From the sequence record MH791411.1: a stretch of 64,000 nucleotides of DNA; one strand, given 5' to 3'. Position 1 is the stretch's first letter. Each line of letters opens with the position of its first letter. The notes under the pieces are model-generated. The model was not told the origin of the DNA. It searched no databases and saw nothing but the letters and a program-made list of their open reading frames with translations. Position numbers and translations under genes: made by a program. This document shows positions 56,421-63,646 of this stretch, one piece after another. Origin of the DNA: Escherichia phage Ecwhy_1.

Positions 56421-56639
56421 TTATTTGGAATTATACAAGCAATACAAGTATACCATAGGAGCAAAATGTTCGGTATCAACTAAGTATATTAACTGGGTGT
56501 CATATATACCGTACAAATCTCGAAATTTATCTCTGTACAGCAACAATGACTTATTGTTGTGTGGGTCAACCCAGTACTTTAAGTCATTGTAGTGCAACGT
56601 GTTATTACGGTAACCTGATAATATTTGTTTTTTAGCCAA
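56421..56639 (-). CDS. Hypothetical protein (72 aa)
   Basis: Overlaps the upstream gene by 8 nt. No motif recognised. Confidence 0.55.
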   Translation of the reverse strand: MAKKQILSGYRNNTLHYNDLKYWVDPHNNKSLLLYRDKFRDLYGIYDTQLIYLVDTEHFAPMVYLYCLYNSK

Positions 56640-57009
56640 CTTTTTTACAATTACTTAGTAAATGCATGATGGCATCAGCGGTAAATGGTCCCAGTACTAA
56701 AACTTCTTCTCCATTACCGAAGATACTCAATGGTACAGATTGTTGTCCTGCTAGATATTCGATTTGTTCTAATTCGAAAATGTCATCAGCAGCATAAACA
56801 ACCTGTTCCATTTCATTATCTTTAATCCATGACTGCCAATGTTCTTTAAACTGCTTCGCTTCGTATTCCAGTACATAGTTAGGTGATTCTGGATTGTACT
56901 GATGTAGCATTGTCATACCAGCCATAACCAGTTCTTTTGGTGATGGAGTAGAATCTTTCAGTACTACGATAGCTTGGATAGTTTTAACTTTAACGTTTTG
57001 AGCAGCCAT
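56632..57009 (-). CDS. Hypothetical protein (125 aa) with weak PTH2/DUF2000-fold resemblance
   Basis: The spacing of AIVVLKD...W..W....EQVVYAADDIFELEQIEYLA....VPLSIF...EEVLVLGPFTADAIMHLLSNCKKV mimics peptidyl-tRNA hydrolase 2. The catalytic DAGxT-type residues are not evident. Confidence 0.45.
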   Translation of the reverse strand: MAAQNVKVKTIQAIVVLKDSTPSPKELVMAGMTMLHQYNPESPNYVLEYEAKQFKEHWQSWIKDNEMEQVVYAADDIFELEQIEYLAGQQSVPLSIFGNGEEVLVLGPFTADAIMHLLSNCKKVG

Positions 57010-57021
57010 TAGATACCTCTA

Positions 57022-57330
57022 TTATAGAATGATTTTGTTATCAGGAACAATCAGTGCTGGTTTTTCTTCGATAGCCTTGATTGCTTCAACATAAGCTTCA
57101 ACTAGTGCAGGGTTTGCATCGCTGATGCTAATGATGTTGGATTTATAAAAAATAACGCCTTTTTCAGAACTAATGAATTCTAGATAATCACGTAGAATGA
57201 TTTCACCTTGTTCGTCAGTACCTAGCTGTGCTGGGTAGTTAACTACTACTGCTTCTGGTGCATCATTTTGTAGAATTGCTAGTACTGGGCCAACGCTGTT
57301 GATGTTTAGTAGTTTAACGGTCATAGTCAT
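57022..57330 (-). CDS. Hypothetical protein (~102 aa)
   Basis: Track start 57339 is TTG. ATG 57330 is preceded by aAAGGActtgacaaaa. Confidence 0.6.
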   Translation of the reverse strand: MTMTVKLLNINSVGPVLAILQNDAPEAVVVNYPAQLGTDEQGEIILRDYLEFISSEKGVIFYKSNIISISDANPALVEAYVEAIKAIEEKPALIVPDNKIIL

Positions 57331-57349
57331 TTTTGTCAAGTCCTTTTGT

Positions 57350-57829
57350 TTATTTTAGAATGTATAAGTGTTTTTCTGCATTAACCAGTCTGTGGTCAAT
57401 GATTTCTTTGATAACGTTCCAGTTACCACCGCCTAAATCGGCTCCAATTTTCGGGAAGTGTACATGGATCTCTTGTGGTTCATTTTTAATGAATTCATTC
57501 ATCGAGTTAAATGCAAGGTCAATCGCATCATAACTTACATACTTCTTACCATCATTACCATAATACTCTTGTGTAATGCAGTTTGCAATAATTAAGTTAT
57601 TATTTGGTGCTGCATAGACAACTTCACCCAATTTCAAACCATTCTGATTGGTATAACGTGTATGATACACATCATATGCCAATTGGTGACGCTTTCTTAA
57701 TTCTTTTGCAAAACCAGAACCCATCTTACCCTGAGCGTTACAACCATGAGCGATAATATGTAATGCAGTTTGATCAGTAGTAACAGTACTGAATAAATCA
57801 AACAGATTACCACAATGTTCATGTATCAT
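57350..57829 (-). CDS. Macro-domain protein (ADP-ribose / Appr-1''-p binding or hydrolase)
   Basis: LHIIAHGCNAQGKMGSGFAKELRKRH is the N-terminal macro signature (h.NC.G.MG.GIA). 159 aa is a single macro-domain size. RBS cGGAGaatataATG. Confidence 0.8.
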   Translation of the reverse strand: MIHEHCGNLFDLFSTVTTDQTALHIIAHGCNAQGKMGSGFAKELRKRHQLAYDVYHTRYTNQNGLKLGEVVYAAPNNNLIIANCITQEYYGNDGKKYVSYDAIDLAFNSMNEFIKNEPQEIHVHFPKIGADLGGGNWNVIKEIIDHRLVNAEKHLYILK

Positions 57830-57840
57830 TATATTCTCCG

Positions 57841-57870
57841 AAAAGAAAGGACTCTGTAATCAGAGTCCTT
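57841..57870 (-). terminator. Rho-independent terminator upstream of the macro gene
   Basis: Minus strand aaggactctg-atta-cagagtcctt followed by tcTTTTcgg. Confidence 0.7.
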
Positions 57871-57880
57871 AATTTATATT

Positions 57881-58123
57881 TTATTCTTCTTCACCGAATC
57901 GAATTTTTTTCAATTCTTTTCGTTGTTTGCGAGCAATGGTACTTTTGTGAAGTCTATTACCACGTTTTGTGTCTTTCGTAATGTACCATGAATCTTCTGG
58001 TGCATTATAATCACAATAACCATCTTCTGTAATCGTCCCTAAGAAAGCAGACTTTTTAGGAATGGATGTTTGAGCTTTAGCAGCGAATTGGCCTTTTGCT
58101 AATTGTTCACGAAAACTGAGCAT
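57881..58123 (-). CDS. Basic hypothetical protein (~80 aa)
   Basis: Track start 58138 is TTG. ATG 58123 (MLSFREQ) follows GGGAGAtactatt. Lys/Arg-rich C-terminus (KSTIARKQRKELKKIRF). Confidence 0.55.
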   Translation of the reverse strand: MLSFREQLAKGQFAAKAQTSIPKKSAFLGTITEDGYCDYNAPEDSWYITKDTKRGNRLHKSTIARKQRKELKKIRFGEEE

Positions 58124-61914: not shown

Positions 61915-61926
61915 CTTACACCTCAA

Positions 61927-62307
61927 TCATATAAAGTAATTATACATTTTATTGTACAATATAAAAAGGTCTTTAACATTATCATAAGTAATATCAGATA
62001 CATCATGAATTAATGATAACTGGAAAAATGATGCTTCGTCTATCTCTACTGGGATTATAACATCATAGTCTTCGTCAATTTTATGGGTGTAGTATTTTAT
62101 GTGATCAGCATTCAACACAAGGTTGTATTTTGTATCATCTTCAATTAATCCGACAAATTGAGATTTTTGATTAATAAAAAATCCAATCCCAACACAACGG
62201 TTATCTGGATATGGATAGTACCATCTATTAATAACTAGGTGTTCAGGTAAGTCCATATCATGTGTTGATATTAAAGATTTTACAATTCCCATCCAGGAAT
62301 AATTCAT
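61927..62307 (-). CDS. Small paralog-family protein (member 1, divergent)
   Basis: The C-terminal EASFFQLSLIHDVSDITYDNV follows the pattern of ..LQY.FIDDTF..D. RBS tatGGAGttttaattATG. Confidence 0.55.
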   Translation of the reverse strand: MNYSWMGIVKSLISTHDMDLPEHLVINRWYYPYPDNRCVGIGFFINQKSQFVGLIEDDTKYNLVLNADHIKYYTHKIDEDYDVIIPVEIDEASFFQLSLIHDVSDITYDNVKDLFILYNKMYNYFI

Positions 62308-62320
62308 AATTAAAACTCCA

Positions 62321-62352
62321 TAAGAAAAGGGACAGAATAATCTCTGTCCCTT
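62321..62352 (-). terminator. Rho-independent terminator after hpf
   Basis: Minus strand aagggacag-agattatt-ctgtccctt followed by TTcTTat. Confidence 0.65.
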
Positions 62353-62353
62353 T

Positions 62354-62382
62354 ATTATATCTTACTCTTCGTCTTCAGTCAA
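62354..62382 (-). promoter_or_regulatory. sigma70-type promoter straddling the hpf stop codon
   Basis: Minus strand TTGACT-gaagacgaagagtaaga-TATAAT (17-nt spacer). The predicted start site falls inside the 5' arm of the terminator hairpin. Confidence 0.55.
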
Positions 62383-62694
62383 GTCTTCTTGAACTGGATG
62401 TTCGGGGTGGTTACGGCGATGCAATTTGATGCTTTTGTCTTTACCTAAGACAGTTTCCATTTTTTCAAATGAATCACCAATTGCTTTGTATAAATCTGCA
62501 TCATCGGCGGTGACAATCTTACCACCTGATGTTAAAGTTACGGAATATTGATTCTTATGCTCTTTCTTCACATGAACACCGATATAAAGTACTGAAGAAT
62601 CACTAAACTTCGTTAGTGCATTTGCTTCTGCATGAATCGCGTCATTGATTGCTGGAGTAATATCAACATTACCTTGGATAACTAAATCTAGCAT
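62362..62694 (-). CDS. hpf: Ribosome-associated inhibitor / hibernation factor (short HPF-RaiA/YfiA family)
   Basis: 110 aa. VDITPAINDAIHAEANALTKF and DADLYKAIGDSFEKMETVLGK parallel recalled E. coli YfiA [21 protein letters not shown] and [21 protein letters not shown]. The acidic C-terminal tail QEDLTEDEE resembles the YfiA EEVEEE tail. Confidence 0.8.
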   Translation of the reverse strand: MLDLVIQGNVDITPAINDAIHAEANALTKFSDSSVLYIGVHVKKEHKNQYSVTLTSGGKIVTADDADLYKAIGDSFEKMETVLGKDKSIKLHRRNHPEHPVQEDLTEDEE

Positions 62695-62719
62695 AATTTA
62701 CCTACCTTTTTTTTTAGTT

Positions 62720-63646
62720 TTAAAGATTACTAACTAACAATTCTGCACGGTTTCCTACTTGACGATACCATAGAGAATTCTTAATTTCTTTTTTGAACTT
62801 GTTATTATTTTGATTATCAACGCTTTTCCATAATTTATTGAAAGTATTTAACTTATCAACTCCTAATGTAAATGCCATCTCAAATAAAATTCGTTGTTGT
62901 TCAGCCGTAAGGTTTGTTGCATTTCTTTTCTTCAATAATAAAACTAAATCATTATTAGTTCGTTCCATGTCAGACAATAAAAGTTTATGTGCTTGTGACT
63001 TCGTAATACCATTACGATACTTACTTGCATCTGATTCTTTCTTTCCAAGATAATGTCCGTACCCAATAGTGAAGTTACCTTTTATATCACGATACGGATA
63101 AAATTTAGAATTTCGATATGGAACTCCAACTTTCCCACCAAGTAAACGTCGTTTGTTCTTGGACTGAAATTCAATAGAACCTTCAGCTTCTTTGATGTGA
63201 TTGACAATTTCTGGATCTTTATAATCAAACAGTACAGTCACATCTGGTAACAATACGTGCTTCAAATCCTCTTTTGTTGGGATAAAGATACCCTGAGAAG
63301 TATGAAGAGTTGCATTTAAGTTGATGTTCTTCAACAAAATGACATAATCTTCAATCTGTACATTTTTAGGTTTAAATTTCTGTGCAATAGAATAATAACT
63401 ATCACCAGGTTGAACCGTATAATGTTTCTCGCTGCTTGGAACTGCTTTTGGTACTGACACCTGTGGTAGTTCCTGCTTTTGAATTTGCGTAACTTGTGGT
63501 TTTAAATTATGCACCTGACTTTCGTCTAATGATGATGCACGATCACTTTGAGAAAAACCATAAAATCCAATCGCAGCGAATAGGGCTGATGAAACTAATA
63601 CGCCTACGGCAATTTTAGTTTTCAGTTCTTTTTTCGCTTTTTTCAA
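62720..63646 (-). CDS. Endolysin: N-terminal membrane anchor + LysM + T4-type (GH24) lysozyme domain
   Basis: TM/signal-anchor IAVGVLVSSALFAAIGFYGF. LysM HYTVQPGDSYYSIAQKF. Lysozyme core HIKEAEG...YRDIKGNFTIGYGHYLG (E...D...T triad with a long E-D insertion). Probable TTG start at 63646 after aAAGGAGGcgtt (track start 63673 is also TTG). Confidence 0.8.
   Translation of the reverse strand: MKKAKKELKTKIAVGVLVSSALFAAIGFYGFSQSDRASSLDESQVHNLKPQVTQIQKQELPQVSVPKAVPSSEKHYTVQPGDSYYSIAQKFKPKNVQIEDYVILLKNINLNATLHTSQGIFIPTKEDLKHVLLPDVTVLFDYKDPEIVNHIKEAEGSIEFQSKNKRRLLGGKVGVPYRNSKFYPYRDIKGNFTIGYGHYLGKKESDASKYRNGITKSQAHKLLLSDMERTNNDLVLLLKKRNATNLTAEQQRILFEMAFTLGVDKLNTFNKLWKSVDNQNNNKFKKEIKNSLWYRQVGNRAELLVSNL

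Follow-up and report, generated by a model that had tools for sequence, protein, structure and literature searches.

A predicted early accessory island of RNA- and translation-related genes kept in order between Escherichia phage Ecwhy_1 and other Rak2-like jumbo phages

In the 64,000-nucleotide stretch of Escherichia phage Ecwhy_1 (sequence record MH791411.1) analyzed here, hereafter the window, a block of minus-strand genes at positions 56632–63646 encodes members of six families, namely a short ribosome-binding factor (HPF/RaiA), a CCA-adding enzyme, a macro domain, a Nudix hydrolase, a glutaredoxin (Grx), and a PTH2-like protein. Comparison with related genomes inclines us to read the block as a vertically inherited early accessory island, specific to its lineage and themed on RNA and translation, the products of which most likely act individually, not as one machine, in maintaining the RNA and translation apparatus of the host for use by the phage. 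The cluster is real and conserved, yet it is better described as an inherited island of several units than as a demonstrated module, and restraint is advised in its interpretation. The initial annotation, made from the sequence alone, had listed these six families and grouped them as a module that protects or retunes translation; all six were recovered, and a LysM-lysozyme gene inside its range (62720–63646/63673) proved to be missing from its list. Coordinates of the features are collected in Table 1.

The window is closely related to the 121Q-type phages (Asteriusvirus), which are Rak2-like jumbo myoviruses with genomes of 350–385 kb. Over the 8 kb around the block, identity was 97.9% with Escherichia phage Turkey3 and about 84% with 121Q and PBECO4. 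All genes between 51.8 and 64 kb lie on the minus strand, and the block is bounded by the LysM-lysozyme gene on one side and by the neck, dNMP kinase, and tail-sheath genes on the other. The regions compared were those of the Asteriusvirus phages 121Q, ph0011, Turkey5, A4, PBECO4, JNE01, WPEC5, and phAPEC6, together with those of EJP2, Hallingskeid (Erwinia), fENko-Kae01 (Klebsiella; fENko), pEa_SNUABM_47 (Eneladusvirus; pEa47), and RCIP0023 (a RaK2-type Klebsiella phage). In at least five genera, at 30–80% protein identity, the order lysozyme, HPF, a variable stretch, CCA enzyme, Nudix, Grx, 80-amino-acid (aa) protein, 85-aa protein, macro domain, 105-aa protein, PTH2-like protein, neck, dNMP kinase, and sheath was kept, the exceptions being RCIP0023, in which HPF was missing, and pEa47, in which the 80-aa gene was undetected by tblastn. 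Conservation in related phages had been proposed in the initial annotation as the check on its grouping, and it was borne out, since the block was kept in order in Asteriusvirus, EJP2, Hallingskeid, fENko-Kae01, and Eneladusvirus. Likewise, nine Rak2-like loci from IMG/VR had the same order, except that no HPF was detected in two (one being L024, and the flank of one of the two being truncated) and no 80-aa gene in L026. The Nudix protein (74–80% identity) and the 85-aa protein (65–69%) were as highly conserved across most genera compared as the neck protein. The flanking genes (tk, lysozyme, neck, dNMP kinase, and sheath) were just as syntenic as the block, and the conserved order is therefore weak evidence for functional coupling.

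One neighbor of the block differs between lineages. Outside the 121Q-type and RaK2-type phages, every genus of the superclade, as represented by GAP32, CBB, BF, pEa, fHe-Yen9, XbC2, Munch, fENko, Hallingskeid, and EJP2, has an RNA ligase gene situated some 5 kb upstream of HPF (at 3446–4705 in the fetched locus of pEa47, 2756–3964 in locus L004, 4164–5417 in the locus of EJP2, and 5958–7211 in that of Hallingskeid). At this place it was missing in the 121Q-type phages, including that of the window, and was not found in RaK2-type phages. The CCA gene may be the remnant of an RNA-repair neighborhood that still holds the ligase in the sister genera. In pEa47, Grx is followed by an inserted YqeY-like (GatB/YqeY) gene (locus 11868–12275); YqeY also adjoins the CCA gene in two unrelated viral loci, a hint of a recurring CCA–YqeY association.

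The grouping in the initial annotation, taken as a single transcription unit, did not hold up, since conserved terminator and promoter signals predict at least five units within the block. In our reading these early-type units comprise lysozyme–HPF; the variable cassette and the CCA gene; Nudix, Grx, and the 80-aa gene; the 85-aa gene; and macro, 105-aa, and PTH2-like genes, all set apart from the late structural genes of the neck and tail. The island, situated between the lysozyme and these late genes, would be transcribed from sigma70-type early-like promoters as at least five separate units. The lysozyme gene, which opens the unit containing HPF, stands directly before HPF in most relatives, while in fENko two small genes separate them. 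The −35 hexamer after HPF (TTGACT/A) is formed by the codons D-L-T of the HPF tail and the −10 hexamer lies beyond the stop codon; of the nine HPF-bearing genomes compared, eight have promoter-like hexamers placed in this way, the −35 of pEa47 lying downstream of the stop codon instead. The −10-like motif upstream of Nudix was found in seven genomes of six genera, followed by GTATCTG in all but RCIP0023. Hairpins with T-runs were located after the HPF, 85-aa, PTH2-like, and neck genes, at the same intergenic positions in the genera compared, and their stem sequences differed from genus to genus. The loop of the hairpin at the neck boundary holds a T4-late-like motif (TAAATA/TATAAATA) in all genera compared; among the intergenic regions examined, this motif occurred at the neck boundary only. 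In the window, similar putative promoter sites also precede lysozyme, Grx, and the 147-aa gene of the cassette. Another motif, TAGTATCTG, was enriched (40 occurrences with one mismatch vs. 19.9) and was set aside because it lay mostly within coding regions. A term search of the PA5oct transcriptome paper returned none of six gene names of the block.

Outside the clade, CCA genes keep a different company. CCA enzymes were present in about 497 phage records, and the full gene combination was absent in four annotated unrelated phages; phiM12 carries an RNA ligase, a CCA enzyme, a RelA/SpoT protein, and PTH2 within 12 kb. Eighty CCA-containing loci from IMG/VR were scanned over a 10 kb range with hidden Markov models (HMMs) built from the clade. 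In the 71 loci that were not Rak2-like, these models detected no HPF or PTH2-like gene, and they found a macro domain in 4, a Nudix gene in 4, and Grx in about 11, counts that roughly correspond to random placement in genomes of 100–400 kb. The notion of a module recurring in independent lineages was thus not supported, as the combination was not seen in any of these 71 loci. Additionally, a Pfam census covered 300 same-strand neighbors within 2 kb of CCA genes, from about 52 distinct loci and in two batches of 150. The commonest families were RlaP (12), cREC_REC (5), RNA ligases (4), and PNK-like kinases, with NADAR, DUF4326, SIR2, YAcAr, YqeY, and YggL as occasional neighbors. The family list of the second batch, which is complete, has no entry for NUDIX, Macro, PTH2, S30AE, or Glutaredoxin. 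None of these five is among the 25 families (of 53) listed for the first batch either, in which singletons such as the Nudix gene of L036 may hide. That locus (IMGVR_UViG_3300048854_000081, an unrelated 350-kb contig) holds Rnl2, CCA, HAD, Nudix, and HAD_SAK_2 genes within 5.4 kb (7716–13084). Its Nudix protein is homologous to the Rak2-type Nudix (2e-19), and HAD_SAK_2 is the 'Swiss Army Knife' RNA-repair HAD domain; L036 is thus an independent CCA–Nudix–RNA-repair cluster and a partial exception to the lack of recurrence. CCA genes are habitually found in RNA-repair neighborhoods, and the Rak2 combination is lineage-specific.

By its sequence, the phage HPF is a diverged member of the S30AE family. 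A profile of the clade orthologues matched the E. coli HPF structure at 1.9e-14 and the RaiA structure at 1.1e-10, and the protein stayed below the cutoff of TIGR00741 (yfiA/HPF; 34.7 vs. 40.9 bits, 1.9e-8). Like bacterial short HPF and RaiA (YfiA), it consists of a single S30AE domain of about 95–110 aa, and its acidic C-terminal tail, DLTEDEE, is conserved; in length and acidic tail it resembles RaiA. Unlike the bacterial proteins, it is encoded by a strictly lytic phage beside a lysozyme gene, and its tail codons double as a −35 element. Since they do, conservation of the tail may in part be a DNA-level constraint. By homology, this short protein would bind the decoding region of the 30S subunit and modulate or preserve ribosomes. 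No RMF gene was noticed in the loci examined, in which no search aimed at RMF was made. Among 50,697 phage records searched by tblastn with three divergent HPF queries, homologues were limited to the Rak2-like superclade, the sole other matches being short Listeria contigs that are possibly host DNA, and HPF occupied the same map position in CBB, GAP32, XbC2, fHe-Yen9-04, BF, and Munch/7t3. HPF is dispensable in the RaK2-type representative examined (RCIP0023). A truncated HPF in Salmonella SD phages was discounted as further evidence of dispensability, because the lysozyme is split into three coding sequences in the same record, which suggests assembly errors. In fENko-Kae01, the HPF, CCA, and Nudix proteins were detected by liquid chromatography–tandem mass spectrometry (LC-MS/MS) in a >300-kDa fraction, which its authors did not regard as proof of virion association. 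The literature search found no experimental paper on a phage HPF.

The head and neck of the CCA enzyme are of the gammaproteobacterial type, and CCA enzymes in the PDB matched it at 1e-22 to 1e-14. Its match to NCBIfam PRK10885 covered only model positions 1–204 of 409; the HD domain is therefore absent, and the GenBank label 'multifunctional CCA protein' is overstated. Residues G7, G8, R11, D12, D21, D23, R91, R92, D93, D133, R136, R139, R142, and F143 were invariant in the alignment, and we take them to belong to the catalytic motifs A (GGxVRD...DxD), B (RRD), D (EDxxR), and E. The best NCBIfam models were those of CCA enzymes (281 bits, vs. 91 bits for PcnB), which is suggestive only of full CCA addition rather than of CC- or A-adding or poly(A) polymerase activity. 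By homology, the enzyme would complete or repair tRNA 3′ ends, including those of phage tRNAs. Neither the window nor seven related loci showed any tRNA genes; the 121Q-type phage Sharanji has seven such genes, about 165 kb from the block, and four of them (Thr-UGU, Asn, Ser-ACU, and Gly-UCC) have no encoded 3′ CCA (locus 84–100 kb, 9712–13954), so that the enzyme has an ordinary maturation job on these four. One Sharanji tRNA-Ser has the unusual anticodon ACU.

The macro domain was closest to BT1257 (2fg1) and SCO6735 (5e3b) among structures; Pfam Macro alone was below threshold (17.9 vs. 22 bits, E = 0.003), and the similarity to the DarG macro domain was weak (3.4e-6, 26.6 bits vs. a cutoff of 250). 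The glutaredoxin also fell below its NCBIfam cutoff (64.8 vs. 84 bits for NF008401). Its gene overlaps Nudix by 11 nt (58649–58659), and the two form one open reading frame (ORF) of 225/227 aa in EJP2 (locus 11174–11851) and Hallingskeid (locus 14064–14747), a fusion which suggests that Grx works with the Cys-rich Nudix protein, rather than with, or besides, ribonucleotide reductase. Glutaredoxins of the GrxA type have NrdAB as a classical client, and the class Ia NrdAB encoded by the phage gives Grx an ordinary role as well. Together with the macro domain, Nudix (with Grx) would, from homology, process nucleotide, cap, or ADP-ribose-type substrates.

The weak PTH2-fold look-alike of the initial annotation was substantiated at the level of the fold. 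The AlphaFold2 (AF2) model of the window protein (pLDDT 71) retrieved Pth2/Bit1 structures as all top 12 Foldseek matches (probability 1.00, E 1e-5 to 4e-4, TM 0.47–0.66). Two orthologues exceeded the cutoff of Pfam PF01981 (23 bits), namely P0010 of the RaK2 type (30.2 bits) and that of Eneladusvirus pEa47 (25.1 bits), while the fENko orthologue had no match. On the model, the protein has a PTH2 fold. When the profile was compared with Pyrococcus Pth2 (1wn2), a 9-residue deletion (GLTEIPPGT) was found to remove the DAGxTE loop, and the residue aligned to an Asp of Pth2, presumably the essential one of the archaeal enzyme, is N in the window and N, D, or E among the orthologues. With this loop deleted and N at the Asp position, catalysis is doubtful. 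Having lost the canonical loop, the protein might, by homology, bind tRNA only or carry out other chemistry.

A conserved +1 frameshift inside the Nudix gene is a new detail of this locus. Codons 1–21 occupy 59093–59031, with the ATG at 59093; they are followed by one extra C at 59030, and the remainder (59029–58649) is encoded in the +1 frame; the shift site spans 59027–59036, and the zero-frame stop codon (59004–59006) follows nine codons on. The C is extra relative to EJP2, Hallingskeid, fENko, pEa47, and RCIP0023, which represent five unshifted sister genera, and the sequence ACA-ACA-C-GGA was present in all 11 of the 121Q-type genomes examined (six haplotypes). Reading from the ATG at 59093 gives the canonical N-terminus MRYSCGIIFYRDGQILIGHTT, and the Nudix box (GX5EX7REUXEEXGU), read from the translation, is intact as GKTEGTETFKEAAVRECYEETGY. 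Of the eight variable sites upstream of the extra C, seven fell on third codon positions in the first frame (binomial P = 0.0026); of the 113 downstream of it, 74 fell on third codon positions in the second frame, and both frames look to be under purifying selection. The joined protein aligned from residue 3 with the Aquifex Ap4A hydrolase 3i7u (1.2e-8), which indicates that the upstream piece belongs to the Nudix fold. A Shine-Dalgarno-like GAGA precedes the ancestral ATG, and none precedes the internal GTG/ATG. All GenBank records use the internal GTG/ATG and thus only the downstream ORF, and more than 30 of them probably annotate a truncated Nudix protein.

Programmed +1 frameshifting occurs at rare or slow codons, as in E. 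coli prfB, yeast Ty1/Ty3, and tandem rare Arg codons. Similar to those systems, the zero-frame A-site codon in Nudix, CGG, is very rare (2 of 20,159 codons, the rarest among the Arg, Gly, and Thr codons tabulated for the phage), and the P-site codon ACA and the +1 codon GGA are served by the phage tRNA-Thr(UGU) and tRNA-Gly(UCC). Unlike them, the P-site tRNA is unable to re-pair in the +1 frame (ACA to CAC), and neither a downstream structure nor a conserved Shine-Dalgarno-like stimulator was seen at the site, two points that weaken the reading of a programmed event. A tRNA-Thr that reads a four-base codon ACAC was rejected, because Sharanji tRNA-Thr(UGU) is of normal length and its anticodon loop has the usual 7 nt. 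Programmed frameshifting is accordingly offered as a tentative explanation that falls somewhat short of being probable, a protein made in two pieces appearing less likely still, and the site as a candidate, recognized from the sequence, that would add to the cases of +1 recoding in phages. The junction tryptic peptide predicted from the joined frames is DGQILIGHTTGQNHWDLPK.

Several observations weigh against reading the block as a translation-themed island. IF3, a tRNA deaminase, and the tRNAs are encoded elsewhere in the genome, the first two being away from the block in CBB also. With random placement, three of 5–8 translation-related genes would fall within 17 of 593 genes with P of about 0.02–0.09. 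The clustering beyond chance is therefore modest and the theme partly post hoc. RCIP0023 has no HPF between lysozyme and CCA and keeps the rest, which speaks against a single module; the Nudix frame is interrupted in the 121Q-type lineage; and the PTH2-like protein lacks the loop described above. The promoter and terminator assignments are consensus matches, and promoter-like sites in the window (50) were not above the number in shuffled sequences (46.3), for which reason only sites conserved across genera were used. The translation-protection idea thus fared unevenly, with the families, their co-conservation, the additional RNA genes, and the Nudix–Grx fusion in its favor, and the single unit, the recurrence, and the catalytic PTH2 loop lost.

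The opposite extreme would be that the genes share no function and are unrelated, dispensable genes held together by Rak2-like genome collinearity, the theme being post hoc. The equal synteny of the flanks, the 10 of the 17 genes in the range that have no assignable function, the marginal significance of the clustering, the fit of Grx to distant NrdAB genes, and the loss of HPF in one lineage and of the RNA ligase in the 121Q-type phages, with the rest retained, all agree with it. We nevertheless consider it unlikely in view of the enrichment of RNA-repair genes around CCA in unrelated viral loci, the independent CCA–Nudix–RNA ligase cluster of L036, the YqeY gene inserted in the pEa47 block and adjoining CCA in two unrelated loci, the Nudix–Grx fusion, and the strong purifying selection on Nudix and the 85-aa protein. 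To a similar degree we doubt that the block is a coordinated counter-defense module, whose genes would jointly reverse abortive-infection damage to tRNA ends, aminoacyl-tRNA, RNA, and ribosomes. In such a scheme, CCA ends hit by nucleotidyl- or pyrophosphoryl-transferase toxins would be rebuilt by the CCA enzyme together with Nudix. Aminoacyl- or peptidyl-tRNA that is blocked would be cleared by PTH2, ADP-ribose would be taken off by the macro domain, and HPF would protect the ribosomes. Reportedly, GNAT toxins acetylate aminoacyl-tRNA and Pth is said to counteract them. The scheme is chemically plausible also in view of CapRel and FaRel2, which pyrophosphorylate tRNA CCA ends (PMC9712102, PMC11559606, bioRxiv 10.1101/2021.04.30.441581), and of MenT, which extends tRNA 3′ ends (PMC11541572). 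The co-conservation of the block in the clade, the hypervariable cassette beside CCA, which resembles arms-race loci, the recurrence of the ADP-ribose/NAD-processing families NADAR, DUF4326, SIR2, and cREC near CCA in unrelated phages, and the weak resemblance of the macro domain to DarG point the same way. However, the predicted transcription units are separate, the combination does not recur outside one clade, the RaK2-type representative has lost HPF and kept the rest, the PTH2-like protein has no catalytic loop, Nudix is frameshifted in the 121Q-type lineage, and CCA and Grx are ordinarily explained by the CCA-less tRNAs and NrdAB. The literature search found no test of these phage genes against a defense system, nor any paper in which the HPF, CCA enzyme, macro domain, or PTH2 of a Rak2-like phage was tested. 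A more elaborate version, in which CCA, macro, PTH2-like, and HPF proteins form a protection kit against tRNA- and ribosome-directed abortive infection and Nudix is supplied through a +1 shift tuned by the tRNA pool at a hungry CGG codon, strikes us as quite improbable. In it, full-length Nudix would arise through the shift alone, and a shortage of host tRNA-Arg(CCG) together with an ample supply of phage tRNA-Thr(UGU) and tRNA-Gly(UCC) would favor the shift. The condition of the tRNA pool would thereby set the expression of an Ap4A/RNA-cap-type hydrolase and of the glutaredoxin that partners it.

When compared with other phages, the lineage-specific island with individually acting products has several partial counterparts. 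In T4, tRNA maturation depends on the host CCA enzyme, PseT and Rnl1 repair tRNA against PrrC, and the gene order lysozyme e, nudE, and tRNA genes is loosely reminiscent of the block. As in T4, CCA-less phage tRNAs need a CCA-adding activity and tRNA-end repair enzymes are found among the predicted early accessory genes. Unlike T4, the phage has a CCA enzyme of its own, its tRNA genes are about 165 kb away, and the RNA ligase is absent in the lineage; PNK, a T4 feature, was not noticed among the Pfam and PHROG matches of the block. The early ribosome-targeting proteins of phiKZ (Gerovac et al. 2024, as described in PMC13282480 and PMC11895373) offer, through host-ribosome binding during takeover, a functional analogy for the phage HPF, although the proteins are unrelated and, according to the authors of the Sharanji paper, a 121Q-type phage has no homologue of the phiKZ factor. 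A precedent for the RNA theme is the survey of Iyer et al. 2021 (PMC7824862), which assigned jumbo-phage CCA, PTH2, Macro, and Nudix proteins to RNA repair and counter-NAD+ roles. According to its passages on these genes, the same families, including RNA ligase, occur in group 2/3 jumbo phages, and the logic is that tRNA ends are restored, peptidyl-tRNA released, and ADP-ribose derivatives processed; the RlaP, cREC, and RNA ligase genes near CCA in our unrelated loci correspond to its RNA-repair and cyclic-phosphate-processing components. More than 30 public genomes already contain the genes with their annotations, and the survey largely anticipated their interpretation in terms of RNA repair and counter-NAD roles (PMC7824862). 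In contrast, a term search of the survey found no mention of an HPF/RaiA gene, and its passages on these genes do not describe the fixed Rak2-type order (PMC7824862); RlaP, PNK, and cREC were not found in our block, and the adjacent RNA ligase is lost in the 121Q-type lineage. If true to their family functions, the products would give Rak2-like jumbo phages a kit that keeps tRNA 3′ ends, ribosomes, and nucleotide/ADP-ribose pools usable. Least understood among these products is the ribosome hibernation factor, the puzzle being a ribosome-silencing protein in a strictly lytic phage.

Table 1. Genes and predicted transcription signals of the block and its borders in the window.
Feature	Position	Strand	Evidence or remark
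Putative sigma70-like promoter, extended −10, before lysozyme	63763..63790	-	consensus scan
LysM + phage-lysozyme protein, N-terminal membrane anchor	62720..63673	-	Pfam Phage_lysozyme 1.4e-9, LysM
Short HPF/RaiA ribosome-binding-factor family, 110 aa	62362..62694	-	Pfam S30AE (PF02482) 7.4e-11, above gathering score
Putative sigma70-like promoter after HPF (−35 TTGACT 62377–62382, −10 TATAAT 62354–62359)	62354..62382	-	11/12 consensus
Predicted terminator hairpin + T-run after HPF, overlapping promoter	62322..62353	-	six genomes, five genera
Variable cassette of seven small genes (126, 127, 41, 67, 137, 147, 40 aa)	60286..62307	-	ORF list
Class II tRNA nucleotidyltransferase (CCA-adding enzyme)	59169..60284	-	Pfam PolyA_pol head 6e-19, RNA-binding neck 2e-9
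Putative sigma70-like promoter, extended −10 (TGATATAAT), upstream of Nudix	59136..59163	-	consensus scan
Nudix hydrolase, Ap4A-hydrolase/RppH-like, two frames	58649..59093	-	Pfam 7.9e-12 on ORF 58649–59062
Glutaredoxin, GrxA type, active site CKFC	58411..58659	-	Pfam 9.8e-9; NF008401 5.8e-18
Conserved 80-aa protein, phrog_34640	58169..58411	-	orthologues of 30–41% identity, four other genera
Hairpin without T-run after 80-aa gene	58147..58164	-	conserved
Conserved 85-aa basic protein, phrog_15319, own predicted unit	57881..58138	-	65–69% identity across genera
Predicted terminator after 85-aa gene	57841..57870	-	hairpin + T-run in 7/7 genomes
Macro domain, BT1257/SCO6735/Poa1p-like subgroup, phrog_335	57350..57829	-	PDB 2fg1 1.3e-15, 5e3b 2.3e-10, 6lfu 4e-4
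Conserved 102/105-aa protein, phrog_527	57022..57339	-	orthologues in all genera
PTH2-fold protein (modeled), 125 aa	56632..57009	-	AF2 model + Foldseek; no Pfam match of its own
72-aa ORF, 121Q-type only among genomes compared	56421..56639	-	76% identical in 121Q
Predicted terminator hairpin before neck gene	56371..56414	-	conserved

Regarding the border genes, the lysozyme start annotated in Turkey3 corresponds to position 63646 of the window. The first ATG of the neck ORF (56385) falls within the conserved terminator hairpin, and the true start is therefore probably a later ATG, as annotated in Turkey3. The spacer between the PTH2-like and neck genes measures 246 nt and is filled by the 72-aa ORF, compared with about 52–61 nt in five other genomes examined. 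The 85-aa protein was better conserved than the CCA, macro, HPF, and PTH2-like proteins and comparable to the neck protein. The gene of the 102/105-aa protein is packed between the macro and PTH2-like genes, with gaps of 10 and 12 nt; a fold search with this protein was dropped because its AF2 model (pLDDT 36) was unusable. Scans with Pfam, PHROG, and NCBIfam assigned no function to the 72-, 80-, and 85-aa proteins or to the variable cassette.

The stretch between HPF and CCA is a hot-spot of gene gain and loss, holding one to seven small genes depending on the phage and differing even between close relatives. In the window, the cassette matched the PHROGs 34272, 20693, 4189, and 36582, all of them function-unassigned. 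The conserved micro-ORFs mentioned in the initial annotation (60286–60408 and 61418–61543) are real paralogues with 67.6% identity, both belong to phrog_34272, and counterparts are present in other genera, namely in fENko-Kae01 and Hallingskeid. Their 40/41-aa products are acidic and end in ...ERL(R/F)DWLMGE. The 137- and 147-aa proteins form a second paralogous pair in BLASTP comparisons. A segmental duplication flanking lysozyme–HPF was rejected, as BLASTP gave these two paralogous pairs only. In phage A4, an HNH homing endonuclease gene is inserted directly upstream of CCA (fetched A4 locus, 8979–10046).

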